Below, in pieces: positions 6,822-63,906 of a stretch of DNA of 64,000 nt; within the stretch, counting starts at the first letter, position 1, and every line of letters starts with the position of its first letter. The notes beneath the pieces were generated by a model. That model was not told the DNA's origin and made no database searches. It worked only from the letters and a program-made list of their open reading frames with translations. Source of the DNA: Candidatus Woesearchaeota archaeon (GTDB lineage Archaea > Nanobdellota > Nanobdellia > Woesearchaeales > GCA-023898365); assembly GCA_023898365.1 (NCBI GenBank), contig CP060219.1:133743-197742 (forward strand), written 5' to 3'. A program made the position numbers and the translations under genes.

Positions 6822-6947
6822 AAAAAACTAGTAACTTGATTCGCTAAAAAACTAGCTAAAAGAAAGCAAAAAATGTTTCGAAAGTTCCTGGAAACTAGTA
6901 GTTTTCTGCAAAACCTTTTTATACAGAGGCGCAGTAATAAGCATCAG

Positions 6948-8270
6948 ATGAAAGAAAGCAAAAAACAATCTCAATCTAAGGCAGCGTATACCAAGATGCA
7001 TAAGAATGAAGTGACCGTTCAACTCACAGATAAGCAAAGCGTTGAAGGAAAACTCATTACAGAAAATGAAACAACCATCACACTCAAACTTTCTTCAGGC
7101 TACAATCAACTACTCTTGAAAAAACGCATAAAATCAATTACTCAAAAAAATAAGACAACGACAGGAAAAAAAGCAACCGAGGAAAAAAAGAAACAAACCA
7201 CTAAGAAAAAAGAACAAGGGTGGAACGATGCCATTGTCATTCTCAATGTTGGAGGCACCATTGCGTGCAAAATAGATTATGCCACGGGCGCAGTCGTTGC
7301 GCAAACAGAACCTGATGAGCTCACTAGCACCATTCCTGAATTACAAGACTATGCGCCGATTGCGACAAAAAGTCTTTCAAATATGCAATCTGATGATATC
7401 AGACTTCAAGATATTAATGCAATTGTTAAAGCCATCGAAGAATGTGTCAACAAAGGTGCGAGAGGAGTTATTGTCACGCATGGAACTGATTTTCTCCATT
7501 ACAGTGCATCAGGAGTGAGTTTTGCACTTGAGCATCCACCCATTCCAGTTATTTTTGTCGGTTCACAGCGCTCATCAGATCGACCATCATCCGATGCAGC
7601 AATCAACGTCATTAATGCAGCATATACAATAAGAAACAGTTCGTTTACAGGAGTTGCCCTGTGCATGCATAAAAATGCTGACGACGGGACAAATACGTTG
7701 TTTAATCCCCAGCAATGTATGAAGCTTCACACGTCTCGCAGAGATGCATTTAAACAAATCAATGCCGCTCCACTTGGGGAAGTCAATGCAGAACAGAATC
7801 ATCTTGTTTTGTTCCATAATGTAATGAATGAAACAAAACCATTCAAAGCGTATCACTATAATGAAAACTTGCGCATTGGTCTTGTCAAAGCACATCCACA
7901 TATGTTTGTTGAAGAATTTTTACATCTCAACAAGTTCGATGCAGCGATTTTCGAAGCAAGCGGACTGGGACATTTTCCCATTTCTATCCACAAAGAAAAT
8001 GAAAAAATTCGAGCCGCCCTTGCAAAACTATCCTGTAAGAAAGTACTCACTGCACAAACTATTTGGGGCAGGATCAATCTTAATGTTTATTCCCCGCAAC
8101 GGATTTTAAAAGAAATGGGATTTCTGGGACATAACCTTAATGTACCAACCCATGCAGCATTTATGAAGATAGCTTTTCTTCTCAGTAACTTTCCTGAAGA
8201 TGTTGATGAACTCTATGAAATTAATCTTCGCGGAGAACTAACTGAGCGAACAGAAAATGTTACAGATTGA
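6948..8270 (+). CDS. gatD: Glutamyl-tRNA(Gln) amidotransferase subunit D
   Basis: Asparaginase-type motifs 'NVGGTIACKIDYATGAV' and 'VIVTHGTDFLHYS'. A Lys-rich linker 'KNKTTTGKKATEEKKKQTTKKKEQ' follows the small N-terminal domain. The maximal ORF starts at 6873. I prefer the ATG at 6948 because TATA-like TTTTTATACA (6916-6925) is centred about 27 nt upstream. Confidence 0.9.
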   Translation: MKESKKQSQSKAAYTKMHKNEVTVQLTDKQSVEGKLITENETTITLKLSSGYNQLLLKKRIKSITQKNKTTTGKKATEEKKKQTTKKKEQGWNDAIVILNVGGTIACKIDYATGAVVAQTEPDELTSTIPELQDYAPIATKSLSNMQSDDIRLQDINAIVKAIEECVNKGARGVIVTHGTDFLHYSASGVSFALEHPPIPVIFVGSQRSSDRPSSDAAINVINAAYTIRNSSFTGVALCMHKNADDGTNTLFNPQQCMKLHTSRRDAFKQINAAPLGEVNAEQNHLVLFHNVMNETKPFKAYHYNENLRIGLVKAHPHMFVEEFLHLNKFDAAIFEASGLGHFPISIHKENEKIRAALAKLSCKKVLTAQTIWGRINLNVYSPQRILKEMGFLGHNLNVPTHAAFMKIAFLLSNFPEDVDELYEINLRGELTERTENVTD

Positions 8271-9303
8271 TGGAAGCAGTGGTGGCGGGAGCGTCATCAG
8301 ACTTGCTTTGGCACTTTCTAGTATTACAGGAAAAGAATTTTCGGTGACCAACATTCGAGCTTCTCGACCCAATCCGGGTCTTGCCATGCAGCATCTGATG
8401 GCAGTCAACGCGTTTGCCCGCATTAGCAATGCTAAAGTTGTTGGCAACACCAAAGGGAGCCGCGAACTAACATTTTCTCCAGGTACTATTCAAAAAAATA
8501 AATTGTTCATTGATGTGCAAACCGCAGGATCGTTAAGTCTTATCATTGAAGCTCTTCTTCCTTGGTTTGTTGCAACAAAACAACCTCTTGATCTTGAGTT
8601 AATTGGAGGCACGAATGTACCCTGGAGCCCTCCCGTTGATACGCTTCAACTGGTTCTCTTCCCCCTCCTCTACAAATATGGCACGTTCACAGCTACCATA
8701 GGAAGACGTGGTTTTTATCCAAAAGGAAAAGGACAAGTAAGATTTTCGTACAGACCAGGAGAGCAAATACCCTATCGTGCAATTCGTCTTACAAAAAAAC
8801 AAGAACTCCATCATGTTAAAGGAATTCTTATTACCACAGAAAAGGATTTGCGTTTTGCAACTGCAATCCACTCTGCGCTTTCTCAAGTACACGAAACAAG
8901 CGACCTTGAAACATTGCAAGTGACTGCTGCAAGCGAAGGAACACAACTCATCTTACTCGCGTATTATGGTGACGACACCGGTTATGACCCCTTTCGTCCA
9001 ATGATTTTATCTGCAGACTGTTTGCTTGAAAAAAATCCTGAACAAACAACACAAGAAACAATTGCTCGTTTCAAAACATTACTTTCAAGCGCTGCGTGTG
9101 TCGATGAACAAACGGCTGATCAGCTTCTTCCCTATCTGGGATTATTTGGTGGCGAACTTATCACAACGGAGCTTACCAATCATTTGACTATTGCCTGCGA
9201 GCTTCTTTCGCTCTTTTTGGAAATCGATATAAGCGCCCAGCAGGGAAAAATTCTGGTCAAAGAAGGATTTATAGAAAAGGAAGCCAAAAAACAACCTTTA
9301 TAA
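8257..9303 (+). CDS. rtcA: RNA 3'-terminal phosphate cyclase
   Basis: 348 aa. The N-terminus 'MLQIDGSSGGGSVIRLALALSSITGKEFSVTNIRASRPNPGLAMQHL' is typical RtcA. It overlaps gatD by 14 nt. Confidence 0.9.
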   Translation: MLQIDGSSGGGSVIRLALALSSITGKEFSVTNIRASRPNPGLAMQHLMAVNAFARISNAKVVGNTKGSRELTFSPGTIQKNKLFIDVQTAGSLSLIIEALLPWFVATKQPLDLELIGGTNVPWSPPVDTLQLVLFPLLYKYGTFTATIGRRGFYPKGKGQVRFSYRPGEQIPYRAIRLTKKQELHHVKGILITTEKDLRFATAIHSALSQVHETSDLETLQVTAASEGTQLILLAYYGDDTGYDPFRPMILSADCLLEKNPEQTTQETIARFKTLLSSAACVDEQTADQLLPYLGLFGGELITTELTNHLTIACELLSLFLEIDISAQQGKILVKEGFIEKEAKKQPL

Positions 9304-9333
9304 AGCATTTGGCGTTTCTCCCAAGTATCACGC

Positions 9334-9440
9334 GGGGCTATGGGGTAATCTGGTTATCCTTTTCGGTTTGGGACCGAACGATCCCGGTTCGAAGGCTTTA
9401 ATTCAGGTTCCTGAAAGGCGCGAAAGTCCGGGTAGCCCCA
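9334..9440 (+). tRNA. tRNA-Pro (anticodon UGG) with a 33-nt intron in the T-loop; no encoded CCA
   Basis: I folded it by hand. Acceptor GGGGCTA/TAGCCCC. U8, A14, G18G19 and A21 are present. Anticodon stem TTCGG/CCGAA with loop TTTGGGA (U33, G37). T-stem CCCGG/CCGGG (G53-C61). The T-loop TTCGAA...T is interrupted. Mature length would be 74 nt. Confidence 0.85.
9394..9426 (+). other. Non-canonical tRNA intron at position 59/60 (relaxed bulge-helix-bulge)
   Basis: A 4-bp helix TTCG(9388-9391)/CGAA(9421-9424) is flanked by 3-nt bulges AAG (9392-9394) and AGT (9425-9427) on opposite strands. Cutting after the second bulge nucleotide restores T-loop TTCGAAT. The inner helix is GCTTT/AAGGC with one extra G. 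Confidence 0.7.
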
Positions 9441-9455
9441 CTTTATGTTGGGAAA

Positions 9456-9707
9456 ATGGCAAAAAAAAGTATGTACGGTTCAGTGAAGCGGTTTGGTCCA
9501 CGATATGGTCGAACAGTCAAGAACAAACTTGGAAAGATTGAGCACGAACAGCGCAAACTCCATGAATGTCCAAAATGCTTACGCCCTGCGGCGAAGCGAG
9601 ATTCTGTAGGCATCTGGATCTGCACCAAGTGCGGAAATAAATTTGCAAGCAAAGCATACACGGTCGCAAAACCTGCCTTGCTTAAACAAAATGCACAAGA
9701 GGTATGA
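9456..9707 (+). CDS. rpl37ae: Ribosomal protein eL43 (L37Ae)
   Basis: 83 aa. 'MYGSVKRFGPRYGRTVKNKL' plus zinc ribbon 'CPKC...CTKCG'. Confidence 0.95.
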   Translation: MAKKSMYGSVKRFGPRYGRTVKNKLGKIEHEQRKLHECPKCLRPAAKRDSVGIWICTKCGNKFASKAYTVAKPALLKQNAQEV

Positions 9708-13249: not shown

Positions 13250-14029
13250 TCAAAGTGCTGCGATTTGTGCACGCAAATCTTTTGCTTTTGAAAAGGCAAG
13301 ATCAAGTGCTTTCTTTAATTCCTCTTCAGAAAAGGGCTGATCTCCTCCTTTTTGCATGGCGCAAACTCTTTTGTCATCAAGCGTTGTAATGGTGATGCGC
13401 GCATCACTCGCTTGTTCTTCAGCTTCAGTTGGATCAACAATTAAATTGTTTCCAATTTTATGTACAGTTACAGGAATAGGAAACTCACTTAATTTTAGTT
13501 TCTCATCCGTTAACTCGCCAAACACAACTTTTCCATTTTCAAGTTTTGGAAATCTTGTCACACGAAGTGCAGCAAGAGAAGCAATTGCTCCCAGATCGAT
13601 AAGGTTGCCATCAGCATTGAGCGGCACAATATCAACTTGCACCATCCACACCAGCTCGCCTTTCTTGATACATAAACTCTTCGTATCAAGCGATCCGCTC
13701 TCACGAATACCTCGATCAATAACTCGAGACGTTTCAATAGAATCAATTGAAGGCGGACCTTCCTCAAAATGAGGGGATGCAAGTGGACGAAGTTCGCAGT
13801 TTACCATAAGAACGCCGTCATCGGGTGTGTCAGGAAAGGGTGTTCCCGCGGTAAGCTTTACACCAACAAGTAACTCTGACTCTCCTGCAATGATCTTTGC
13901 ACTTCCTTCGGCAGTAAAAATACTTCCCACTTCGAAAGAAATTTTTCGAAATTCATCATTCTTTCGCCCATCGAGGCGAAAGCCTTTCTTAATTGCGTTG
14001 GCAACATGGGTTTTCACATTACTATTCAT
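13250..14029 (-). CDS. rrp42: Exosome complex subunit Rrp42 (RNase PH-like, inactive)
   Basis: 259 aa. 'GFRLDGRKNDEFRKISFEVGSIFTAEGSAKI'. Located downstream of rrp41 with a 4-nt overlap. Confidence 0.9.
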   Translation of the reverse strand: MNSNVKTHVANAIKKGFRLDGRKNDEFRKISFEVGSIFTAEGSAKIIAGESELLVGVKLTAGTPFPDTPDDGVLMVNCELRPLASPHFEEGPPSIDSIETSRVIDRGIRESGSLDTKSLCIKKGELVWMVQVDIVPLNADGNLIDLGAIASLAALRVTRFPKLENGKVVFGELTDEKLKLSEFPIPVTVHKIGNNLIVDPTEAEEQASDARITITTLDDKRVCAMQKGGDQPFSEEELKKALDLAFSKAKDLRAQIAAL

Positions 14030-14730
14030 TTTTGTTCACCCTCGCTAAAGCGATCTTTTAATGCCTGCTTTTGAACCTTTAGAATTTCTTGAAGTGCTGG
14101 TTTAACAAGTGTAAGCGCCTCAAGAACTTGATCCTTCGTCATAATACCATCCATTTGCAAGAGAGTGTATTCTCCCGTTGAAGGAATCATTGCAATAGGA
14201 ACATCAGGCGTTTCATTTTCATTCATGTGTTCTTCTTCGCCATCAAGATCTACAACAAGTTCATTGTTAATTAAACCAACGGAAACTGCTGGAACAAGAT
14301 CTTTCATGGTGATTCCTGCGTCAGCAAGAGCAATCGCTGCTGCGCAAATACCTGCACATCTACTTCCCGCATCAGTCTCTGAAAGTTCAATAAACACATC
14401 AACTACTGCGTTAGGATATTCACTTAAATCAACTACGGGAAGCAATGCTTTTTGTGTAACAAGTGAAAGCTCTTTACTTCTTCTTGAAGGTCCAGGTCTA
14501 TTTCGTTCGGTCGTCGAAAAAGGAAGCATGTTGTAAGAACATCGTAAAATTCCCGTTCTCGGATTTTGCATAAATTTTGGATGCAATTCGCGTGGACCAT
14601 ATACTGCTGCATAGGCCGCGGTGTTTCCAATTTTGAAATAGGCAGATCCATCAGCTTTTTTGATCACACCAGCTTTTGCTTGGAGTTTTCGCACATCAAG
14701 ATTTGATCGTCCATCATGTCGTTTTGTCAT
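14026..14730 (-). CDS. rrp41: Exosome complex exonuclease Rrp41 (RNase PH domain)
   Basis: 234 aa. 'HDGRSNLDVRKLQAKAGVIKKADGSAYFKIGNTAAYAAVYGPRE'. Confidence 0.92.
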   Translation of the reverse strand: MTKRHDGRSNLDVRKLQAKAGVIKKADGSAYFKIGNTAAYAAVYGPRELHPKFMQNPRTGILRCSYNMLPFSTTERNRPGPSRRSKELSLVTQKALLPVVDLSEYPNAVVDVFIELSETDAGSRCAGICAAAIALADAGITMKDLVPAVSVGLINNELVVDLDGEEEHMNENETPDVPIAMIPSTGEYTLLQMDGIMTKDQVLEALTLVKPALQEILKVQKQALKDRFSEGEQK

Positions 14731-14732
14731 TT

Positions 14733-15617
14733 TTATTCCTCCGATCCTTGCGGCGTTTTCTCCTCGCTTGCTTGCATAGGAGGCCTATCTCGAGGCGGTC
14801 GTCGTTCTCTTCGGTCGCGTCCTTCGAATCTTGAACGAGGGCGATCACGATCTGGTCGACGCTCTCTCATTGGAGGTCGCTCAGATTCACCCACCTGTTC
14901 TTCGGGAACTTCCGGACGATTTAGCGCTTCTTCACCTAGCTTTTCTTTAAGATAGGTTTCGACGCGATTGGTTAATCCACTTATGTGAGCATATTTTTCG
15001 ATCATACGGATAGCGCCAACAACAACATATTCTTCTTCAGGTGTGCCATTGATCCAAATCAATCCATTTTGACCGACAACGATGCGACAGCCGGTTGCAC
15101 GTTTCAAAAGGGAAACCATGCTACCACTCTTGCCAATAACACGAGGCACTTTTGCAGAATTAACAGTGATAAGTCGGCCACCAGTTAATTTGCCAAGTCC
15201 CTGACCTTTTGCAGAAATATCAATAAGGTTCTGACTGGTAACATTCGTTATTTTCACCGCTGCATAATCATCAATACAAAAATACTTTGTCAAATCTGCT
15301 CCGCGAGCGACAAAATCAAATGTTCCATCTTTAAGACCGATAACAGCCGAGTAGGCTCCGCCGATATCTACGCGCCAACCACTAATCAGCACATCAATGA
15401 CTTTACCGATAACGACATCATTTTTCTTAGGTTGGTAGACGCCAGAAAGAGGCACTGTTTTCACAACCTTTCCAGAAACTTGGAGCAAGCCAAGACGGTT
15501 TGCAATAATGTGGTCATTTGCCCGATAGGTTCCCGTTGAGGGTAGAAAATCCATTCCTTCAGCAATCAATTCGCCGGGCACGACGATTGCGCGTTCATTT
15601 ACTAAAAGTTTACTCAT
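14733..15617 (-). CDS. rrp4: Exosome RNA-binding cap subunit Rrp4 (S1 + KH) with a C-terminal RD/RE-rich extension
   Basis: 294 aa. S1 region 'DVVIGKVIDVLISGWRVDIG' and KH region 'GKSGSMVSLLKRATGCRIVVGQNGLIWI'. The last ~60 aa are 'RERRPDRDRPRSRFEGRDRRERRPPRDRPP...'. Confidence 0.9.
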   Translation of the reverse strand: MSKLLVNERAIVVPGELIAEGMDFLPSTGTYRANDHIIANRLGLLQVSGKVVKTVPLSGVYQPKKNDVVIGKVIDVLISGWRVDIGGAYSAVIGLKDGTFDFVARGADLTKYFCIDDYAAVKITNVTSQNLIDISAKGQGLGKLTGGRLITVNSAKVPRVIGKSGSMVSLLKRATGCRIVVGQNGLIWINGTPEEEYVVVGAIRMIEKYAHISGLTNRVETYLKEKLGEEALNRPEVPEEQVGESERPPMRERRPDRDRPRSRFEGRDRRERRPPRDRPPMQASEEKTPQGSEE

Positions 15618-31119: not shown

Positions 31120-32214
31120 TTACTTCCATCCCCAGTTTTTTTGGAACGCTGTTTTGAACGCTTCAAAAGTGTTAGTCTTGATTTCTTCGCGTGAACGATC
31201 CATGAGCCGTTGCATAAAACGAAGGTTGTGGATTTGTTCAAAGCGTTTACCGACAGGATCGCCAATTTTTGAAAGGTGGTAGACATAAGCTTTCGTATAC
31301 TTTTGACACACCAGGCAATCACAGCCTTCTTCAAGTGGAGAAAAATCGAGGCGATACTTTCCTTGGTCAATAGTAAGTGGTCCGGCGAAGGTAAACAGTT
31401 TATGATGCCTGCCAGATTTTGTTGGGTAGATGCTATCAAACATGTCCGCGCCAAGACTGATTGCTTCAAGCACATCAGGCGGAGAACCAAGTCCCATGAC
31501 ATAGCGAGGTTTATGCTCATCAAGCAACGGCAAGCTGATGCGTAGTGCTTGAAACATTTCACTTGAAGGTTCGCCAATAGCAAGGCCGCCAACAGCATTT
31601 CCTGGAAAATCCATCTCGTTTATTGCTTTTGCTGCAAAGGCTCGTAATTCATCTGAAAATCCTCCCTGAACAATGCCAAAGAGTAATTGTTTCGCATCAG
31701 TATGTGCTTTTTTCGCGCGCTGATGCCAGGCAAGCGTTATATCAAGTGCTTTTTTGAAGTCCGCTTCACTCGATCCATATGGCATCATAACATCAAGTGC
31801 CATGGCAATATCGGATCCTAAAGTCATCTCTATGTCCATCATTTTTTCTGGCGTGATTACATGAAGTGATTGATCGTAAGGACTGCGAAAATGTAAGGCG
31901 TTTTTTGATGATTTTTCAAAAAAACCTCTGGACATTTGAAACCCCCCCGAGTCTGTTGCGATAAGACCGTGGAAATTCATAAACTTATGAAGGCCTCCTG
32001 CTTTTTTGATTGCTTCAAGACCTGGACGAAGATACGTAACAAGCGCGTTACAAATTATTGCTTGCTGCGCATTTGCGTTGTAATCATCACTTGTAATTAT
32101 TTTTCCTGTTGCTCGCGTTGCAACTGCCATAAAGAAAGGTGTTTGCATCACGCCACTTCTTGATACGAACTCAAGAACGCGGGCTTTTCCTGAACGTGCA
32201 AGAATTGTTGCCAT
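31120..32214 (-). CDS. tgt: tRNA-guanine transglycosylase, catalytic domain only
   Basis: 'SGVMQTPFFMAVAT', 'LIATDSGGFQMS', Zn site 'CDCLVCQKYTKAYVYHL'. The maximal ORF starts with GTG at 32232; the ATG at 32214 is preferred (364 aa). No C2/PUA extension. Confidence 0.9.
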   Translation of the reverse strand: MATILARSGKARVLEFVSRSGVMQTPFFMAVATRATGKIITSDDYNANAQQAIICNALVTYLRPGLEAIKKAGGLHKFMNFHGLIATDSGGFQMSRGFFEKSSKNALHFRSPYDQSLHVITPEKMMDIEMTLGSDIAMALDVMMPYGSSEADFKKALDITLAWHQRAKKAHTDAKQLLFGIVQGGFSDELRAFAAKAINEMDFPGNAVGGLAIGEPSSEMFQALRISLPLLDEHKPRYVMGLGSPPDVLEAISLGADMFDSIYPTKSGRHHKLFTFAGPLTIDQGKYRLDFSPLEEGCDCLVCQKYTKAYVYHLSKIGDPVGKRFEQIHNLRFMQRLMDRSREEIKTNTFEAFKTAFQKNWGWK

Positions 32215-32266
32215 AAGAAAAAGAGAAAGCACAAGTTATTTTTTAAAATGATGGTTTATTGAAGAT

Positions 32267-45722: not shown

Positions 45723-47132
45723 CTATTTTTTTAGACGATCGAATTCGACTTCGCTGACCGCCTTAGCAGAAATTCCTCTTTTTTGTAAAGCTCGCTCAAC
45801 AGTAAACGACTTATACCCTCCCTTGCAAATAATAAGGTACGATTTCTTTTTATCAAAATCATCAAGCTCGTCAAGAATTTCTGGGAACGAACGCACTTCA
45901 AAAGAAGCGCCGAATTTGAGTACTTTTGCATCAGTTCGCAAATCAATAATCGCTAAATCAGCAAGCGAAGTAAAAGATAATGTTTCTTCATACAACCCAG
46001 CAAAAGTAAGTGACTCGAGGATGAGTTTCTTTGCACGAGCACGAAACGAAGGAATGTGCTCTTCGTCTTTCTCTTTTGGAGACGTTGCAACAGGACCTTC
46101 AGAAAGAGAACAATGTTCCTGAACATGTTCTGAGTACGTAAACGTTCCCGCCCATCTGGCCAGAGCAATAATATCTTGCTTGTTTTGTGTGAGAAGCGGA
46201 CGAAATACAGGAACAGGAAATTTCTTTTGAATAAACGCAAGACTCGCACCCGTCTGACTCGATTTTTGGCTGAGCACTTCACCCGTTGCAAGCGCAACAT
46301 ACGCATGCTGAGTAATAAGAATGGCAGAAAGTTCATACAGAAAACGTTTAAACGCGATTTGTCGAAAACGGGAAGGAACAGCAGACGTAATTTCTTCAGC
46401 TACAACAGAAGCATCCACAATAAAGAGTTTTGGCTTGTAATTAAAACAAAAAGTATCAACAAGATAATTATAGCCACGCGCAACCTCTTCACGCTGCGCA
46501 TCACCAGCCGTTTGTACAAATAAAAAATCGATAAGAAAACCACGCTTCAACAATTCAATCGCGGCAACAGGACTATCAATCCCACCAGAATACAAGAGCA
46601 AGAGTTTCTCTCCGCTACCAGGAGGAAGACCGCCAAGCCCCCGTTCTTGAGAAGCATACACAAAACACTCCGATTGACGCACCTCAACAAAAATAGTCAC
46701 TTCAGGCGTGTGTAAATCAACACCTGCACTTGCTTTGTAAAGCTTTGCGCCAAGCTCCTTTGCAACATCATCAGAAGAAAACTCGTGTTTACCAGTCCTT
46801 GACTTCACCCGCACACGAAACTTCTTGTTTGCAACCAAAGGAAGGCCAAAACGAGTAGCTTGCATAAGCAACTCATCAAGCGAAGCAAATGAAAACGAGA
46901 AAGCAGGAGACAAACTGGCAACAGCAGGCACAAACTTACACGCTTGAAGAACCTCATCAGGAGAAGAAGAATAAATAATAAAACGACCACCGAAATTCTT
47001 AATCCGACCCTTCACACCCTTTCTGCGAAGCGCATCCCTTAGCGCAAACACGTATTTGCGCTCAAAAATCATTCTCGCACCACGGCTCTTAATACCGAGC
47101 TCATCATAGCGAAGGAGGACTGCGTTAATCAT
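45723..47132 (-). CDS. thiI: tRNA 4-thiouridine synthase ThiI with C-terminal rhodanese domain
   Basis: 469 aa. THUMP-like N-terminus, PP-loop 'LLLLYSGGIDSPVAA', rhodanese-like 'LIICKGGYKSFTVERALQKRG'. Confidence 0.9.
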   Translation of the reverse strand: MINAVLLRYDELGIKSRGARMIFERKYVFALRDALRRKGVKGRIKNFGGRFIIYSSSPDEVLQACKFVPAVASLSPAFSFSFASLDELLMQATRFGLPLVANKKFRVRVKSRTGKHEFSSDDVAKELGAKLYKASAGVDLHTPEVTIFVEVRQSECFVYASQERGLGGLPPGSGEKLLLLYSGGIDSPVAAIELLKRGFLIDFLFVQTAGDAQREEVARGYNYLVDTFCFNYKPKLFIVDASVVAEEITSAVPSRFRQIAFKRFLYELSAILITQHAYVALATGEVLSQKSSQTGASLAFIQKKFPVPVFRPLLTQNKQDIIALARWAGTFTYSEHVQEHCSLSEGPVATSPKEKDEEHIPSFRARAKKLILESLTFAGLYEETLSFTSLADLAIIDLRTDAKVLKFGASFEVRSFPEILDELDDFDKKKSYLIICKGGYKSFTVERALQKRGISAKAVSEVEFDRLKK

Positions 47133-53960: not shown

Positions 53961-55214
53961 CTATGGCCAGACGAAAACATCTCCGTTTTCAAGAATGCGT
54001 GCTTGTGCACCGTGTTGTTCTGCAAGGAGTTTCACGGAATTGTTTAATTCTGGCGTGCCATGTGTTGGCAGGACCAATTTTGGCTGTGCAAGCGTAAGAA
54101 GTTTCTCCCTATCAGGCCTTGTTGCGTGTCCCGAGGTGTGAATTTCTTTTGTGACGTTCGTGTTCCGTTCTTCAAGGAGAGCTTCAAGTGCTCGGCGATT
54201 CTCTTCATTTTCTGGTGTTGGTATGACTCTGCAACTAAAGATGACTTCGTCACCTTTCTTAAAGTTGTAAAGGCCCTTTCTGACCATACGCGAAAGAACT
54301 GCTGAAGGCTCAGCTTGATGGCCAGTGACAAGAAGGACGTGCTGCGAGGGATCAACAAGTGATGCAAGAAAATTTTCGATCTTCTTTGGACGTTTAAGCA
54401 CCCGAACGTCTTCAAAATCAATACCTATCTCTTCGGCTGCTTTCACATACTTGTGCAAAGAATTGCCAAGGAGGGTGATTGTTCGACCAGAACGCTTTGC
54501 GCAATCTATAATGGTCTTGATTCGGGAAATATGTGATGCGAAAGTCGTAACGACAACCAAACCTTTTTGTTTGGTAATTTTTCGAAGCAAAGAACACATA
54601 TCCCGCGCAACCGACTGTTCTGTAGGATTCGTTGTCATCACTTCATTATTCAAACTGTTCAAAATAAGAATATCTGGCTTTGCAGCGACAATCCCTTCAT
54701 AATCAGGAGGTTCGCCAAGTGTTGGGGCATCATCTAAACGAAAATCATTCGCGTAAAGAATTCTTGCTGTTTTGGTTTTGACAAGAATAAGTGCGCTTTG
54801 GATCGTAGAATGTGTCACATGAATAAATTTTACTTGAATATTCCCGACCTTGATGTTGCGCTCGAAAGACACAGGTTTAAGATTGAGCTTCTTATTATAC
54901 TGTCGGATAACTGCCAAAGAAAAAGGCGTACCATACACGGGAAAAGGAAGGTGTTTGTAAAATTGCAACGCGCCCAAATGATCAAGATGCGCGTGAGAGA
55001 TAAACAAGGCCTTAACCTTTTTTTTCACATCCGTAATATTAGGGATTGCTCCAATACTGCGCAACGCCTTCAAACTCATTTCGGGAAGCGCATTCTTGCT
55101 GAAACGATCGACATGAAGACCAAGATCGAGTAAGAGACCATCACTTCCTTCTTCAATGTACGTGCAATTCCTACCTATCTCGCCATAACCACCCAAAGGA
55201 ATAATTTTTACCAT
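53961..55214 (-). CDS. rnj: Archaeal RNase J-like metallo-beta-lactamase/beta-CASP ribonuclease
   Basis: 417 aa. 'KIIPLGGYGEIGRNCTYIE', 'FISHAHLDHLGA', C-terminal 'HTSGHA'. Confidence 0.8.
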   Translation of the reverse strand: MVKIIPLGGYGEIGRNCTYIEEGSDGLLLDLGLHVDRFSKNALPEMSLKALRSIGAIPNITDVKKKVKALFISHAHLDHLGALQFYKHLPFPVYGTPFSLAVIRQYNKKLNLKPVSFERNIKVGNIQVKFIHVTHSTIQSALILVKTKTARILYANDFRLDDAPTLGEPPDYEGIVAAKPDILILNSLNNEVMTTNPTEQSVARDMCSLLRKITKQKGLVVVTTFASHISRIKTIIDCAKRSGRTITLLGNSLHKYVKAAEEIGIDFEDVRVLKRPKKIENFLASLVDPSQHVLLVTGHQAEPSAVLSRMVRKGLYNFKKGDEVIFSCRVIPTPENEENRRALEALLEERNTNVTKEIHTSGHATRPDREKLLTLAQPKLVLPTHGTPELNNSVKLLAEQHGAQARILENGDVFVWP

Positions 55215-56175: not shown

Positions 56176-56312
56176 TGCGGGGGAAGGGATTCGAACCCTC
56201 GAACCTACTTAAGGACTAGATTCCTCAAAGGCGCAAACGATCCAAATGATAGTTTGCCTGCGTAAGCAGTTTCTTGAGTCTAGCGCATTTGACCAGACTT
56301 TGCTACCCCCGC
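56176..56312 (-). tRNA. tRNA-Leu (anticodon CAA), class II, with a 51-nt canonical intron; no encoded CCA
   Basis: I folded it by hand. Acceptor GCGGGGG/CCCCCGC. D-arm TAGCAAAGTCTGGTCAAATGC is archaeal Leu-like. Anticodon stem CTAGA/TCTAG with loop CTCAAG|A. It has a long variable arm and T-arm GAGGG-TTCGAAT-CCCTT. Confidence 0.9.
56222..56272 (-). other. tRNA-Leu intron at canonical 37/38
   Basis: The 51 nt lie between CTCAAG and ATCTAG. The intron 3' segment TTTGAG pairs with anticodon-loop CTCAAG, leaving a GA|A bulge as expected for a bulge-helix-bulge motif. Confidence 0.8.
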
Positions 56313-58123: not shown

Positions 58124-59413
58124 TCAAAACGTAATGGTTTCCCCAATTGAAGGGCCCATTACCGTTGTTTGTGGCAACGCTTTCTTTCCCCATGCAAGCA
58201 TGGCTTCAATTGCTTCAGGATCTCCATGCTGCACAATAAGCTTTTTTGGATTGATGCTTTCAATAAATGCATGTAAATGATTTTGATCTGCATGACCTGA
58301 AAACATGAATTGTTTCACATCACAGTCAACTTGGGTTTTCCAACCTTTTAGGTAAATTGCACGTTCTTCGAGAAGCATTCTTCCTTGGCATCGATGGCAT
58401 TGATAGCCTGTTAAGAAGATTGCTGATTTCGGATCATGCCAAATATGTTTTATGTAATGAATAACCGGGCCTCCTTGCACCATACCTGATGTCGAGACAA
58501 AAATTCCTGGTCTTGTTGCAGCATAATTTCTTCGTTTTTCACTTGAAACAAAACGCACCTTTGAAAACATTTCTTTTAATGCAGGCCTTCCTTGGAGATG
58601 CCGTTCAGAATTTCTTAGAACTGTTTTGGTTATTTTAGTGGCCATTCCATCAAAATACACAGGAACATCCCATTTTGCGCGAGAGAGAATTATGAGAATG
58701 TCTTGCGCTCGTCCAACGGCAAAAACAGGAATAACGACGCGCCCACCATTTTTTACAACACGTTCAACTTCGCTCAAAAACTCTTCAGCAAGTTGGGCCT
58801 TCTCTGGTAGAGGCCTGTTTCCATAGGTTGATTCAGTTATCATAATATCAATTGGTGGAAGATGCGCATCAGCAGGCGCCATGAGAAGTTGTTTTCCAGG
58901 ATTAAAATCACCCGTGTAGAGAATATTCTTCCCTTCGGTTTGAAGCAAGAGCATGCCAGCACCAGGTATGTGTCCTGCGTTATAAAAACTGAATGCATCT
59001 CCTCGATGTTCGTATTGCGTGCCAAGACGTACAGGTTTAACATATAAGGAGATTTTTCGCAGATCTAAACTATCATATGCTGGATGCAAATGTTTGATGC
59101 GAGCTATCTTGTAAGAATCTTTGAGAAGAATTTTTATCAAACCCCACGTTTGTGGCGTCATGTAGAAAGGAAATTTTACTTTTTTTGCAGAAAGTTCATG
59201 CACAAGAAGTGGAAGTCCTCCTGAATGATCAAGATGAGCGTGGCTCAAAAACAACGCACTTACTTGTTCAGGATCTTTGAGTCCTTCAGGATAATCATAC
59301 CCTGACGAACTGAATTTGATTCCGTAATCGAACAAATATCTATTCTTTGATCGTAACTCAATACAACTACGGCCTACTTCATTAGCTGCGCCATGAAAAA
59401 CCAACTCACCCAT
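58124..59413 (-). CDS. beta-CASP metallo-beta-lactamase ribonuclease, aCPSF2-like (no KH domains)
   Basis: 429 aa. 'FLSHAHLDHSGGLP', 'NAGHIPGA', C-terminal 'FSGHAD'. TATA-like ACATATAAAT (59435-59444) is centred about 27 nt upstream of the ATG. Confidence 0.85.
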   Translation of the reverse strand: MGELVFHGAANEVGRSCIELRSKNRYLFDYGIKFSSSGYDYPEGLKDPEQVSALFLSHAHLDHSGGLPLLVHELSAKKVKFPFYMTPQTWGLIKILLKDSYKIARIKHLHPAYDSLDLRKISLYVKPVRLGTQYEHRGDAFSFYNAGHIPGAGMLLLQTEGKNILYTGDFNPGKQLLMAPADAHLPPIDIMITESTYGNRPLPEKAQLAEEFLSEVERVVKNGGRVVIPVFAVGRAQDILIILSRAKWDVPVYFDGMATKITKTVLRNSERHLQGRPALKEMFSKVRFVSSEKRRNYAATRPGIFVSTSGMVQGGPVIHYIKHIWHDPKSAIFLTGYQCHRCQGRMLLEERAIYLKGWKTQVDCDVKQFMFSGHADQNHLHAFIESINPKKLIVQHGDPEAIEAMLAWGKKALPQTTVMGPSIGETITF

Positions 59414-59567: not shown

Positions 59568-61253
59568 ATGAAAAAAACCCAGATAGTGTTCATTATCATC
59601 CTCGGGTGCTGTATGATAAGTTCCTTCGCCAGTTCTTGCAATGAAAACATGACAGGATGTTTTGACGTAGAACTAACACTCCACCAAACAGAACCAGTAC
59701 TTAACACAACATACACGAATTTATTTCGATTGGAAAATTTAGATCATGAACAAGGAGTGGAAGAACAACTACGCATTTTTGTAACCTATAATGTATCATG
59801 GCATAACGAAACGTACAATAATTCATTTCTCAAGACAATCAACTCCTATTCAACGACCGGAACAGGAACGTTTACGTTTTCTGCAAACACAAGCCATCTT
59901 CTCTGCGGCGAAATCAGAAACATTTCACAAAACGGAGAGCAGATTAGTGATCCCCACCCGGAAAATAATGTTCTTTGCACCGCAATTGTTTTCGATAACA
60001 CCAGTAATGCAACGGTCAACGAAACAGGTAACGCAACAAACGAGTCTGAAGAAGGAGTTTGCAATCAATCAGTACGTTTCCTCGTTTTGCAGGCGCTAAG
60101 CAATCACAGTTTTCAATTTAAACCAATAATTTCTGCAGAACAACATTGGACGCTCACCTATTGGATAGAAGATCTTGATGGTGTCATATTCAAACAACCT
60201 ATGAACACAACAAACACGAACTGGAAATCATTTACTCCCAGCTCAAGTGTTACGGGAGAAAAAATATTCAGGCTTTACGGACGTCTCAACACAACGTGTG
60301 CACAAACAGAAAACTCAACGTTTCTTTTGCTCAAAAGAGCGCAAGAAGAAAATGAAGAATCATCAGAAAGTGAATGCGTAGAAGATGAAGAAGAACAACA
60401 AGAATCAGCATTGTCATTTACCGCATTACCTGAGGAAATAATTGCAGGATCGACAATTTCGATAAAAGTCAAGGCATACCGAGGAAATACGCTCAAAAGG
60501 AAAGTGACGTTGAGAGGTCCTGGCAATCAAATGAGTTTTTTGATTAACGACAAATATGCTGAAACAGAAGTGACCATTCCCTTCACTATTGAGAAGAGTT
60601 GTTCACTCGAAGAAGGACCAGTTGATTTTATCCTTTCAGGTCTTGACGAAGAAAAAATTATTACCGCGCAGCTTTTCAGACCAACTCAAGATGAGTGCCA
60701 ACCAGCAGAAACGAATGCGACTACCAGCTCACCAAGTCAAAATAGCATTGCAAGTTTTTATACGCGAAAGAAAAAATATGCGCCGCACATAAATTTTTCC
60801 TATCGTCTTGAGCAAGAGTCAAACGACAGCTCAATACTACTTATCATTCCACATCTCCTTCTCAATACAACGACAAATGTGCCTGCTAAGCCAGGCAACA
60901 ACACCGTTTTTTTTCTGCTTAAAGAAGGAGAAGACATAATTGATTTTTTTGAATATCAGTATTTTCTTGAAGATGATTCGCTTAGTCTTGGCGAAAGTGA
61001 AGATCAAAAAGAATCCGAATCCGACTCGTCGAACAACACTCAACGTGAAGACAGTGATCGTTCTCCGCTTACTGGTTTAACCATTTCAGTTCCAAAGAAT
61101 GAGGGGAAGAAAGTAATCGCAATTAGTGTTTTAATCATGCTCGGCATAGCAACATTCGCTGTTGCGCTCATCAAACGAAAGAACATTATTTACGCGGTAC
61201 AACATAGTAGCTTTTATCTTCATAAGAAGAATTCAAAGGATGGAAAGGGTTGA
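59568..61253 (+). CDS. Sequon-rich type I membrane surface protein
   Basis: The ATG at 59568 gives 'MKKTQIVFIIILGCCMISSFASS' (maximal ORF starts at 59547). It has many N-x-S/T sequons and a C-terminal TM 'VIAISVLIMLGIATFAVALI'. Confidence 0.65.
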   Translation: MKKTQIVFIIILGCCMISSFASSCNENMTGCFDVELTLHQTEPVLNTTYTNLFRLENLDHEQGVEEQLRIFVTYNVSWHNETYNNSFLKTINSYSTTGTGTFTFSANTSHLLCGEIRNISQNGEQISDPHPENNVLCTAIVFDNTSNATVNETGNATNESEEGVCNQSVRFLVLQALSNHSFQFKPIISAEQHWTLTYWIEDLDGVIFKQPMNTTNTNWKSFTPSSSVTGEKIFRLYGRLNTTCAQTENSTFLLLKRAQEENEESSESECVEDEEEQQESALSFTALPEEIIAGSTISIKVKAYRGNTLKRKVTLRGPGNQMSFLINDKYAETEVTIPFTIEKSCSLEEGPVDFILSGLDEEKIITAQLFRPTQDECQPAETNATTSSPSQNSIASFYTRKKKYAPHINFSYRLEQESNDSSILLIIPHLLLNTTTNVPAKPGNNTVFFLLKEGEDIIDFFEYQYFLEDDSLSLGESEDQKESESDSSNNTQREDSDRSPLTGLTISVPKNEGKKVIAISVLIMLGIATFAVALIKRKNIIYAVQHSSFYLHKKNSKDGKG

Positions 61254-63906
61254 GTTCAAGATGAGTATTTGTTGAAACGTCAATCATTCTTCGCCACACT
61301 TCTTGTGACACGTCAGGAGACATCGGATAGGATTGTTCGAGGAGGCCATGATATGCTTGAGAAGTAAACAGCAATTGCCCCACATTAAATCCTGAAAAAA
61401 CTGCACCTTTTCCTCTACGAGAATATCTGCGTAGATCTGATTGACCTCGTTCACTTGAAACATTTAAGAAACCAATATTCCCTCCAAGTCCAAGAACAAA
61501 ATTTGCTTCTCGCGTATCACCACCAATATCTGCAGTGCCCGATTTCCCCCACAACAATTCTTCCCCTGCTTGATCGGTTAAAAAAACGCCAGTTGGCCAC
61601 GTTCGAAGACGCTGCCTCCACTCAGCTCGGTCTTTCTCAGATGGTGCAATAAGTGAATTTGGAGGCAATCCTTCGTAACCATATGAATAAGGAACAATCC
61701 TCGCATATGCTTGCGTTGCAGAAGCTGCAAAGGGTGAAAGCCCTCCATGAGGACTTATAGCCCGCTCAACAAAGACCGTGTCAGCACTACCGTTTGAAAC
61801 AACAAGTTTCGAAAACCAGCGAAGACCTGGAACTTCAATTGGTGCAGCTCCTTCGAATAGTACTTTGTTTGTTGTCAGCGCACCATGGTTTTGAAACATT
61901 AACAGGTAGGTAAGCGCATCATCAATATGAAGGGGCACTGCGCCAAGAATAGTTGCGTCAATCTTTGGATCTAATTGGTGTGATCGAGAAAATCCGATAC
62001 GCTCATTCCAAAATGAAGCAAGTTCTTCAGTGATAGTTGGCCTGCCTTCTTCTCTTCGTGCATTGTTTCCAATATTAAGAAGATTGACAAAATAGCGGTT
62101 TATTGACTTGCCAAGCGCAAAACTAAAATCGACAAGACCCCAATATTTATTTTTAAAATTTTTTATAGGAGGAGAAAATACGGGTCTTCCTTTCCAGTTA
62201 ATTCGTTTGTAGCGAACAGGATTAACGGGCGTGTCAGAAAAAATTTCTCTATCAAGTCCTTCTTCGATAAAGAAAGGAGCGTAGAGAAGCTTGCAAATAC
62301 TTCCAATTTGCCTTGGTTCATCAAACGAATGACCAGTTGCTTTTCCTCGGGTATTACTAAAAGCGGCAATGACATCGCCTTGTCTGCTTGCAACAATTCC
62401 CGTGAGATTAGGATCATCATCAATCGATAAGAGCGTGTCAAGAGATCCGAAGAGGCGAGGAACAAGCGTCTGTTGTTGATAAGGAAAATTTGTCAACGTC
62501 GTATGCACAGCAAGGTTTCTTGCAAGCAATTCTTCTCCCGTTTGTTTTGAAAGGTAACGCAAAATTTCACTTGCACGAGCATAGAGTGTGTTTTTTAACG
62601 CAATAGCGCCAGCGTTTTCCAAAGGTGCAGGTTTGCGGCCAGCAATTGAACTTGCAAACGAAAGAGATGAAGGAGGAGTAATACCATTTCCTTCAAGCGT
62701 TGGAGCAATTCTATAATGAAAATCATCTTGAAACAATTGTGCGAGAGAATCAACATATGCTTGCTGCGTGTTTGGTTCTCCTAAAAATCCTTCTGAATTA
62801 ATCGAAGGTTTGTTTGTTGAGGTGAGAAGCATCATCATTTCTGTTTCTGAAAGTGGCGAAGTGCGACCAAAATGGTGTAAAGATGCTGCGGCAAGGCCTC
62901 TTGAAAAAACACCTCTGTCAAGGCCAAACGGGATGTTATTAAGCGCGAGTTCGAGTAAGCGATACTTAATTACTTCTCTTACTTGTCTTTCAGGAAGCGT
63001 TGCTGCAAATGTTCGCTCCGCATCAGAAAAGAGGGGTGTTGTGGAAGGGTCAGCTACAAGAACAGAACGCGTAATTTCCTCAAGTTTTCTACCATAATCT
63101 CGTTCAAATTGTTTGTCGTCGCCAAGACGCATGAGTTGTTGCACAATAGTGCTGCTTCCTTTTGGAGATCCTGGTTTACTATCACTTCGCAGACCTCGAA
63201 CTAAGGAAGGCAAATCAATTCCGAAAAGCGAATATCCTTCGACCCCCTCCCAGTAATTCAAGAATTGAAGAACTTCAGAAGGCCTATACGTGGTGGTGTC
63301 TTGATGCCACGCACCTTTTTCAAAAAATTGTGAGTAAAATCCTGGAAGTACCTTCCCCTCTGAATCGCGAAGAACGGTAAGCGAATCTGGCAAGAAAATA
63401 GGAGGAGGAGTTCTATTTCGAAACATTTCTTTGCCTTGCACATCATAGACAATGAATTGTCGATTATGAGCAAATCCTTGCAAAGAAGCGATTTGATCCT
63501 CAAGAGAGTGTTCGTGAAGTTCCCTTTCAATACTCTGCGATAGCGCGTCCCAATCATGACCTTTGCGTTCAAGCACCACATCAATTCCTTTGAAAAGAGC
63601 TTGTTGGGTGAGTCCTAGACCTTCGTTTTTCCCTCCAAACCGCGCCACAAATGCTGCTGCAACGTTATCGTTACCTGATCGAAGGACAGCAGTTCCTACC
63701 TCTTGAACAAGTGACCGATAAGGAACGTGTGCAAGGGAGACGCCTATTGCAGATCCTGCGGCAAGAAGAGAAGCTGTTTTGAGAAGAGAGCGACGTTTTC
63801 GCGGAGCTCGTTCCTTGCTTGGAGAACCTTCTTTATTGAAATCTATCGTATAGAGTGGATCCTTCACAGATCCTTCTAAAGAGGGTTTAGAATCAGGCGC
63901 AACCAT
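61186..63906 (-). CDS. Class A penicillin-binding-protein-like bifunctional protein (GT51 glycosyltransferase + acyl-serine transpeptidase) with a Tat-like signal
   Basis: 906 aa. Tat-like signal 'RKRRSLLKTASLLAAGSAIGVSLA'. GT51 motifs 'EGVEGYSLFGID', 'KGSSTIVQQ', 'RKLEE', 'RLLELALNNIPFG..RGLAAASLHHFG'. Transpeptidase motifs SxxK 'GSICK', SxN 'KSINR', KSG 'GKSGTA'. TATA-like CATATATAAA (63929-63938) is centred about 27 nt upstream of the ATG. Confidence 0.8.
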   Translation of the reverse strand: MVAPDSKPSLEGSVKDPLYTIDFNKEGSPSKERAPRKRRSLLKTASLLAAGSAIGVSLAHVPYRSLVQEVGTAVLRSGNDNVAAAFVARFGGKNEGLGLTQQALFKGIDVVLERKGHDWDALSQSIERELHEHSLEDQIASLQGFAHNRQFIVYDVQGKEMFRNRTPPPIFLPDSLTVLRDSEGKVLPGFYSQFFEKGAWHQDTTTYRPSEVLQFLNYWEGVEGYSLFGIDLPSLVRGLRSDSKPGSPKGSSTIVQQLMRLGDDKQFERDYGRKLEEITRSVLVADPSTTPLFSDAERTFAATLPERQVREVIKYRLLELALNNIPFGLDRGVFSRGLAAASLHHFGRTSPLSETEMMMLLTSTNKPSINSEGFLGEPNTQQAYVDSLAQLFQDDFHYRIAPTLEGNGITPPSSLSFASSIAGRKPAPLENAGAIALKNTLYARASEILRYLSKQTGEELLARNLAVHTTLTNFPYQQQTLVPRLFGSLDTLLSIDDDPNLTGIVASRQGDVIAAFSNTRGKATGHSFDEPRQIGSICKLLYAPFFIEEGLDREIFSDTPVNPVRYKRINWKGRPVFSPPIKNFKNKYWGLVDFSFALGKSINRYFVNLLNIGNNARREEGRPTITEELASFWNERIGFSRSHQLDPKIDATILGAVPLHIDDALTYLLMFQNHGALTTNKVLFEGAAPIEVPGLRWFSKLVVSNGSADTVFVERAISPHGGLSPFAASATQAYARIVPYSYGYEGLPPNSLIAPSEKDRAEWRQRLRTWPTGVFLTDQAGEELLWGKSGTADIGGDTREANFVLGLGGNIGFLNVSSERGQSDLRRYSRRGKGAVFSGFNVGQLLFTSQAYHGLLEQSYPMSPDVSQEVWRRMIDVSTNTHLELNPFHPLNSSYEDKSYYVVPRK

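Follow-up and report, generated by a model that had tools for sequence, protein, structure and literature searches.

A tRNA-Pro(UGG) gene of Woesearchaeota with a predicted protein-spliced intron in the T-loop

The 64,000-nt stretch of DNA analysed here (the window) lies in a 1,131,583-bp contig of Candidatus Woesearchaeota archaeon, a metagenome-assembled genome (MAG) deposited at NCBI. At positions 9334–9440 of the forward strand, on which all parts of the gene lie, it carries what is very probably a functional tRNA-Pro(UGG) gene of this DPANN lineage, interrupted between tRNA positions 59 and 60 by an intron of the archaeal, protein-spliced type; this reading comes from sequence comparison and predicted folds. 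The complete gene, including the intron, is 107 nt, as defined by ARAGORN after intron removal and by covariation. Its 5' exon (9334–9393, tRNA positions 1–59, from the sequence and ARAGORN) is GGGGCTATGGGGTAATCTGGTTATCCTTTTCGGTTTGGGACCGAACGATCCCGGTTCGAA, which ends in CCCGGTTCGAA, and contains the 5' strand of the acceptor stem, the D arm, the anticodon arm, the variable loop, the 5' strand of the T-stem, and T54–A59. The anticodon, TGG (Pro), is at 9369–9371, based on the ARAGORN structure and the sequence. The 33-nt intron, GGCTTTAATTCAGGTTCCTGAAAGGCGCGAAAG, follows at 9394–9426, its junction set by intronless orthologues, and the 3' exon, TCCGGGTAGCCCCA (9427–9440, from the sequence and ARAGORN), supplies T60, the 3' strands of the T-stem and acceptor stem, and A73. 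A preliminary description of this stretch had proposed a tRNA-Pro(UGG) with a 33-nt T-loop intron at 59/60, and the sequence, ARAGORN, and the orthologues showed its coordinates and description to be right.

This gene is not evident to standard tRNA finders. ARAGORN made no tRNA calls in the raw window and likewise did not call the unspliced gene alone, and the Rfam tRNA model reported nothing tRNA-like at 9334–9440, even at E ≤ 10. Two snoRNA-like Rfam matches at that threshold were dismissed as chance. With 9394–9426 deleted, ARAGORN calls a 74-nt tRNA-Pro(tgg). The spliced tRNA has a 7-bp acceptor stem with A73 as the discriminator and no encoded CCA; a D stem of G10–U25, G11–C24, and G12–C23 plus a U13·U22 mismatch, with a D loop that keeps GG; an anticodon stem of TTCGG/CCGAA with the loop TTTGGGA; a 4-nt variable loop; and a T stem of CCCGG/CCGGG with the T loop TTCGAAT. 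The standard tRNA nucleotides G18G19, A14, A21, G53–C61, A58, G37, and A73 are present in this form. At the insertion site the order is T54, T55, C56, G57, A58, A59, the intron, and then T60. When 1755 deletions were scanned (start 9340–9431, length 20–45), 75 restored an ARAGORN tRNA, all of them within 9389–9431, that is, in the T loop. [quoted passage not shown]

By definition, a BHB has a 4-bp helix between two bulges of 3 nt each (PMC4090602), and such a motif is part of the unconstrained minimum free energy (MFE) fold of the precursor, in which the acceptor, D, and anticodon arms are kept and the T stem is extended. The outer helix h is the T stem itself (CCCGG at 9383–9387 with CCGGG at 9428–9432). 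The central 4-bp helix H, formed by T54–G57 (TTCG, 9388–9391) and CGAA (9421–9424), stacks directly on it as UUCG/CGAA. The 5' bulge consists of A58, A59, and the first intron nucleotide, a G (9392–9394), with the splice site between 9393 and 9394; the 3' bulge consists of the last two intron nucleotides, A and G, and T60 (9425–9427), with the splice site between 9426 and 9427. Within the intron body (9395–9419) there is a second outer helix, h' (GCTTT/AAGGC, 9395–9399 with 9415–9419), of 5 bp including one G–U, which closes a small hairpin (9403–9406 with 9411–9414). One unpaired G (9420) faces the 5' bulge and creates a 3x1 internal loop, and inspection of the sequence found no other pairing register that would yield a strict 5' bulge without it. 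The BHB is thus mildly relaxed, with G9420 as an extra nucleotide and both flanking helices and both bulges present. This fold agrees with the preliminary description, which had proposed a relaxed BHB with a 4-bp TTCG/CGAA helix and 3-nt bulges, and adds the unpaired G9420 as a refinement. In a canonical BHB the cut falls between nucleotides 2 and 3 of each bulge, symmetrically on both strands, and the two cuts predicted here have the same placement.

Relatives of this gene were found with an exact 23-nt pattern (the anticodon arm and the 5' half of the T arm) in scans that covered one genome per species and the JGI metagenomes. Counting the window, there are 17 distinct archaeal tRNA-Pro(UGG) sequences, nearly all from MAGs labelled Woesearchaeota, Nanoarchaeota, or Nanoarchaeia. 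Eight have a T-loop insert directly after TTCGAA, the length of which is 33 nt in the window, 31 nt in L003, 35 nt in L022, 49 nt in L021, 42 nt in L005, 40 nt in L007, 175 nt in L008, and 278 nt in L027. Seven others (L006, L010, L017, L019, L020, L024, and L028) are intronless and have TTCGAA followed immediately by TCCGGG, with T at position 60 in all seven (TTCGAATCCGGG). Because of these orthologues the exon junction can be fixed at 59/60; excision in the window gives the same junction, which bears out the initial claim that it would restore TTCGAAT. An insert in the D loop only is found in two sequences (L009 and L013), and D-loop introns occur in four of the 17, as L005 and L007 have a T-loop intron too. 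The Rfam tRNA model gives the intronless L017 a score of 55.4 bits and misses every intron-bearing gene among these sequences.

The splice motif is shared by these alleles. In all eight, T54–G57 can pair with the four nucleotides that stand ahead of the final two of the intron, in the same 3-4-3 geometry, with pairing at 4/4 positions in five alleles and 3/4 in three. The pairing partner is CGAA in five alleles, AGAA in one, and CGAC in two, and the 3' bulge has AG before the cut and U after it in six of the eight. In the window, L003, L022, and L021 the MFE fold is the BHB itself; in L027 and L008 the BHB comes within 0.1–1.6 kcal/mol of the MFE.

The D-loop inserts of L005 (=L026), L007, L009, and L013 (=L023) are ~30–33 nt long and lie directly after the conserved GG, with boundaries that are ambiguous by 1–2 nt. 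The contig of L009 (CAZKNU010000009.1) is labelled "uncultured Methanosarcinales archaeon"; its tRNA-Pro is of the Woesearchaeota type and has L37ae and prefoldin beta downstream, the arrangement of the other DPANN loci, and the bin label is probably wrong. The long introns of L008 (=L018) and L027 (175 and 278 nt) are mostly perfect hairpins without a match to any Rfam family. The exons of both are near-identical to those of the intronless L017 and L028, and the L027 intron is the L008 intron with additional hairpin units, a relationship that suggests hairpin insertion or duplication as the route of intron expansion in these two genes.

Exons and introns differ sharply in conservation. Taken together, the exons of the window gene share 91–92% identity with those of L003, L022, and L008, against 46–53% for the introns, which is no more than shuffled controls reach (mean 46%). 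Between the window and the same three loci, the adjacent L37ae proteins have only 46–54% identity, and so the lineages are well separated. Within sub-lineages the introns are recognizably related (64% for L003/L022 and 74% for L005/L007, the latter pair with compensatory changes in the outer helix). Across the eight alleles the nucleotides that form the BHB are kept and the remaining intron sequence is at the shuffled background. The tRNA locus has the same sequence in two independent Logan read-set assemblies (SRR12358675 and SRR12358676) and is therefore not an assembly artefact.

Covariation supports the cloverleaf of this gene. When the cloverleaf was applied to 13 spliced or intronless sequences, 94.9% of cells were paired and eight pairs had changed on both sides, a level matched by 0/500 shuffles and far above slid-register controls. 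The search pattern itself dictated 23 positions, and the lack of variation in the anticodon loop and T arm is partly by construction; the compensatory changes fall outside the pattern and affect the acceptor and D stems, the outer part of the anticodon stem, and a single pair of the T stem. Some points weigh against the reading of this gene as functional and spliced. Splicing itself is predicted, from the gene, its fold, and its relatives. The unpaired G9420 makes the motif less than strict, and a strictly specific splicing endonuclease (EndA) could cleave it inefficiently. The search for a second tRNA-Pro(UGG) was made in the window, which is part of a 1.13-Mb genome. Lastly, no gene for EndA or the ligase RtcB was identified by Pfam domains in the window, in ~10 kb of its right flank, or in ~0.8 kb of its left flank. 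Neither did tblastn with Methanocaldococcus jannaschii EndA (query checked against PDB 1a79) match the window and flanking sequence, and when a protein database was searched with the same query and then with a profile of its DPANN hits, none of the 5659 matches came from this contig.

The EndA proteins of related lineages are informative as to the type of enzyme that may be involved. Matches that carry the label Nanoarchaeota or Woesearchaeota consist of a single unit of 170–211 aa that contains both EndA domains, an alpha4-like architecture. When aligned to solved structures they have, relative to M. jannaschii EndA, no insertion at the L3 site, where the Nanoarchaeum equitans alpha subunit has six additional residues and ARMAN-2 EndA has five. 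Some have a basic insert of at most three residues at the site of the crenarchaeal/ARMAN-2 specific loop (CSL/ASL). Among the homologs inspected for tails and inserts (P0100, P0099, P0063, P0070, P0084, and P0103), which come from Nanoarchaeota- or Woesearchaeota-labelled or from unlabelled metagenome sequences, several single-unit EndAs have lysine-rich N-terminal tails of 20–40 residues. These tails and basic inserts may bear on the recognition of relaxed motifs. The suggestion made at the outset, that the presence of such an intron implies a splicing endonuclease of broadened specificity, is plausible at the level of the lineage and for this genome would be an extrapolation by analogy; the need for broadened specificity is itself uncertain because the motif is nearly a full hBHBh' with 3-4-3 geometry and so close to strict.

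Based on established archaeal tRNA splicing, from which the enzymes and chemistry are taken, the following route can be proposed. The gene would be transcribed, probably from an A/T-rich box (TTTATAAA) at 9297–9304. In the precursor the T stem would be extended as UUCG (T54–G57) pairs with the CGAA near the 3' end of the intron, which would create the BHB with AA and G on either side of the cut in the 5' bulge, and AG and U in the 3' bulge. EndA would then cut between 9393 and 9394 and between 9426 and 9427, leaving a 2',3'-cyclic phosphate and a 5'-OH, and an RtcB-type ligase would join the exons (...GGUUCGAA to UCCGGG...) to give the T loop UUCGAAU. As CCA is not encoded, it would be added after splicing.

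The gene's neighbours on the upstream side are GatD (6873–8270, forward strand) and, directly upstream, RtcA (8257–9303), and on the downstream side L37ae (9456–9707), followed by a 71-aa open reading frame, prefoldin beta, and UPF0147. A tRNA-Pro upstream of L37ae was found in 20 of 20 archaeal loci, forming a conserved slot together with prefoldin beta and UPF0147. The TTTATAAA box, a candidate archaeal TATA box on the forward strand, lies ~30 nt upstream of the tRNA and is probably its promoter, judging from its sequence and position; similar A/T boxes are present 30–40 nt upstream of the orthologues that share the window's tRNA body type. In loci of the "TAGTGTAG...TATCACTAG" body type (L005, L007, L009, L013, L021, and L024), the only evident TTTATAAA-like box ends 7–12 nt before position 1, nearer than the usual archaeal TATA-to-start spacing allows; for the window and the remaining body types the distance is ~30–40 nt. 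As for GatD, the protein, which has asparaginase-type domains, has an extra lysine-rich N-terminal stretch of ~100 residues, and its start codon is uncertain since the gene caller's product is 465 aa long in one of the two assemblies but 424 aa in the second.

The preliminary description had drawn attention to RtcA, and its identity (PF01137; RNA 3'-terminal phosphate cyclase in the NCBI annotation) and position were confirmed: it ends 30 nt before the tRNA, and its stop codon (9301–9303) is overlapped by the candidate TATA box. This proximity could be taken to mean that RtcA is functionally coupled to the intron, for instance through a dedicated end-healing step in the splicing of tRNA-Pro. 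We regard such coupling as quite improbable. By tblastn, RtcA and GatD were not beside tRNA-Pro in any relative, several of these loci having 2–6 kb of upstream sequence, and RtcA was not found in the 2.5–3.6 kb upstream of the intron-bearing L003 and L008; it is L37ae, on the other side, that is constant. In addition, cleavage by EndA already gives 2',3'-cyclic phosphate ends, which would make a cyclase unnecessary (PMC4090602). Since RtcA is beside tRNA-Pro only in this genome, the adjacency looks coincidental.

A second alternative is that this is a pseudogene, a once-intact tRNA-Pro that a 33-nt insertion has disabled, while another part of the genome holds a functional copy. The absence of calls by standard tRNA finders would be expected of such a gene, and the confinement of the search to the window leaves room for another copy. 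However, the insert is located exactly where a 3-4-3 BHB forms and where its excision rebuilds the T loop, and eight distinct alleles keep an insert here in which the pairing nucleotides are conserved and the remainder has diverged to background. The exons remain highly conserved with the cloverleaf maintained, the gene fills the conserved tRNA-Pro slot upstream of L37ae, and the TATA-like box is intact. On these grounds we judge inactivation to be very unlikely and a functional tRNA-Pro(UGG) gene to be the far better reading of the locus.

The boundaries of the intron might also be shifted by one nucleotide, to 60/61, which would produce the T loop UUCGAAG with G60 in place of U60. While ARAGORN accepts many T-loop deletions, including that of 9395–9427, the intronless orthologues invariably have T60, the 3-4-3 geometry sets both cuts at 59/60, and the shifted 3' site would fall within the G53–C61 pair, making this version of the intron extremely unlikely. 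The chance that the insert is simply retained in a mature tRNA with an enlarged T arm is close to nil, as it would destroy the interaction of the T loop and D loop (G18–U55 and G19–C56) and in relatives it can be anywhere from 31 to 278 nt long or, in seven, absent altogether, while the exons are conserved.

The tRNA-Pro(UGG) gene with its 59/60 intron has, at the sequence level, every hallmark of archaeal protein-spliced, EndA-dependent BHB introns: a canonical tRNA is restored, the motif is 3-4-3, helices h and h' are both present, and the intron body is drifting. Other classes of interruption were considered and rejected. Group I introns in tRNA genes have a ribozyme core (P3–P9) of at least ~200 nt and are usually in the anticodon loop; this insert is only 33 nt, is in the T loop, and matches no Rfam intron family at E ≤ 10. 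A split or permuted tRNA gene was rejected since the two exons, which are contiguous, stand in colinear order within 107 nt. A search for a mobile intron family, which compared the intron with other parts of the window, the intron of a tRNA-Leu among them, returned only short chance matches.

That tRNA-Leu(CAA) gene (56176–56312, reverse strand; 86 nt mature; identified by Rfam, 45.9 bits, and ARAGORN -i) is the second intron-containing tRNA of the window and the only find of the Rfam tRNA model there, and it is missed by default ARAGORN. Its 51-nt intron is at the canonical 37/38 position (56222–56272) and has a 3-4-3 BHB with the central helix CUCA/UGAG. The two genes thus follow the same 3-4-3 logic and presumably use the same enzymes in the same cell, but the anticodon-loop intron is detected by Rfam and ARAGORN -i, whereas the T-loop intron of tRNA-Pro is invisible to both.

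Position 59/60 is among the published insertion sites of non-canonical introns (PMC4090602; PMC3239211). A close parallel is ARMAN-2, whose pre-tRNA-Cys(GCA) carries a 13-nt intron at 59/60 that the cognate EndA cuts in vitro, and whose pre-tRNA-Pro(GGG) is interrupted by introns at both 53/54 and 59/60 (PMC3239211). Both cases involve a DPANN host, a 59/60 intron, and a BHB-type motif built on the T arm. They differ in that the gene described here encodes tRNA-Pro(UGG), with a 33-nt intron, in a member of the Woesearchaeota, and in that its motif falls little short of a full hBHBh', where that of ARMAN-2 is hBH; moreover, ARMAN-2 EndA is a three-unit epsilon2 enzyme, whereas the EndAs labelled Nanoarchaeota or Woesearchaeota are single-unit and alpha4-like. 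Introns of the Crenarchaeota, and of the Thermoproteales in particular, are similar in belonging to the protein-spliced BHB class outside the anticodon loop. The tRNA-Pro(UGG) of Pyrobaculum islandicum, for example, has three introns, at 25/26, 56/57, and 37/38 (PMC4090602), and some of the relatives described here have two, in the D loop and T loop. Those hosts, however, belong to a different phylum and have an (alpha-beta)2 EndA with the crenarchaeal specific loop. The preliminary description had held that non-canonical introns are reported mainly from Thermoproteales and a few other lineages; they are documented in DPANN archaea as well, including at 59/60.

Our findings are also in keeping with those of Kaneta et al. 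(2018), in which DPANN lineages with alpha4-type EndA, one Woesearchaeota genome included, show more tRNA gene disruption and an increase in non-canonical tRNA introns (PMC5829648). The available text of that study does not describe the tRNA-Pro 59/60 intron or its recurrence in the lineage, and within the literature searched only Kaneta et al. touches on Woesearchaeota tRNA introns. What is new here is accordingly limited, in that position 59/60 introns and disrupted DPANN tRNA genes are already published; it comes down to the particular tRNA and lineage, to an intron that recurs at one and the same site in diverse Woesearchaeota, present in some and absent from others, and to intron lengths that span 31–278 nt.

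The sequence of the insertion site offers a possible explanation for this recurrence. In the window, the CGAA that ends the 5' exon is found again immediately before the AG that precedes T60, so that the intronic CGAA directly repeats the end of the exon and, at the same time, complements TTCG. As TTCGAA is self-complementary, the central helix of a BHB would form of itself whenever an insertion brings a second CGAA at its 3' end, and the UUCGAA of the T loop could be the reason why 59/60 recurs as an intron site. The combined proposition, that Woesearchaeota splice slightly relaxed BHB introns at non-canonical positions with a single-subunit alpha4-type EndA without the length insertions to which broad specificity has so far been linked, and that self-complementary UUCGAA makes 59/60 a hot spot, is one we consider doubtful as a whole. 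If it is true that an alpha4-type EndA without insertions handles a relaxed BHB, broad specificity would have a different structural basis.

Elsewhere, the window is rich in RNA-processing genes. These include two beta-CASP/metallo-beta-lactamase ribonucleases (RNase J / aCPSF-like; 53961–55214 and 58124–59413, reverse strand), the exosome subunits Rrp41, Rrp42, and Rrp4 (13250–15617, reverse strand), archaeosine TGT (31120–32232), and ThiI (45723–47132). On the reverse strand, at 61186–63906, this archaeal genome encodes a protein of 906 aa that contains a peptidoglycan transglycosylase domain (PF00912, E = 4e-11) and may have been acquired from bacteria.

The general picture of archaeal tRNA splicing is unchanged by this gene, and its value lies mainly in DPANN annotation and as material for the study of intron turnover. 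Because the gene is missed by ARAGORN and Rfam, genomes of the lineage can seem to be without tRNA-Pro(UGG), an apparent absence that affects completeness estimates and codon-usage inferences for DPANN MAGs. With the site filled in eight of the 17 sequences and empty in seven, and with the additional D-loop introns, these genes form a compact natural series in which the gain, loss, and expansion of introns can be studied, one that bears on which EndA architecture processes such substrates in DPANN archaea.

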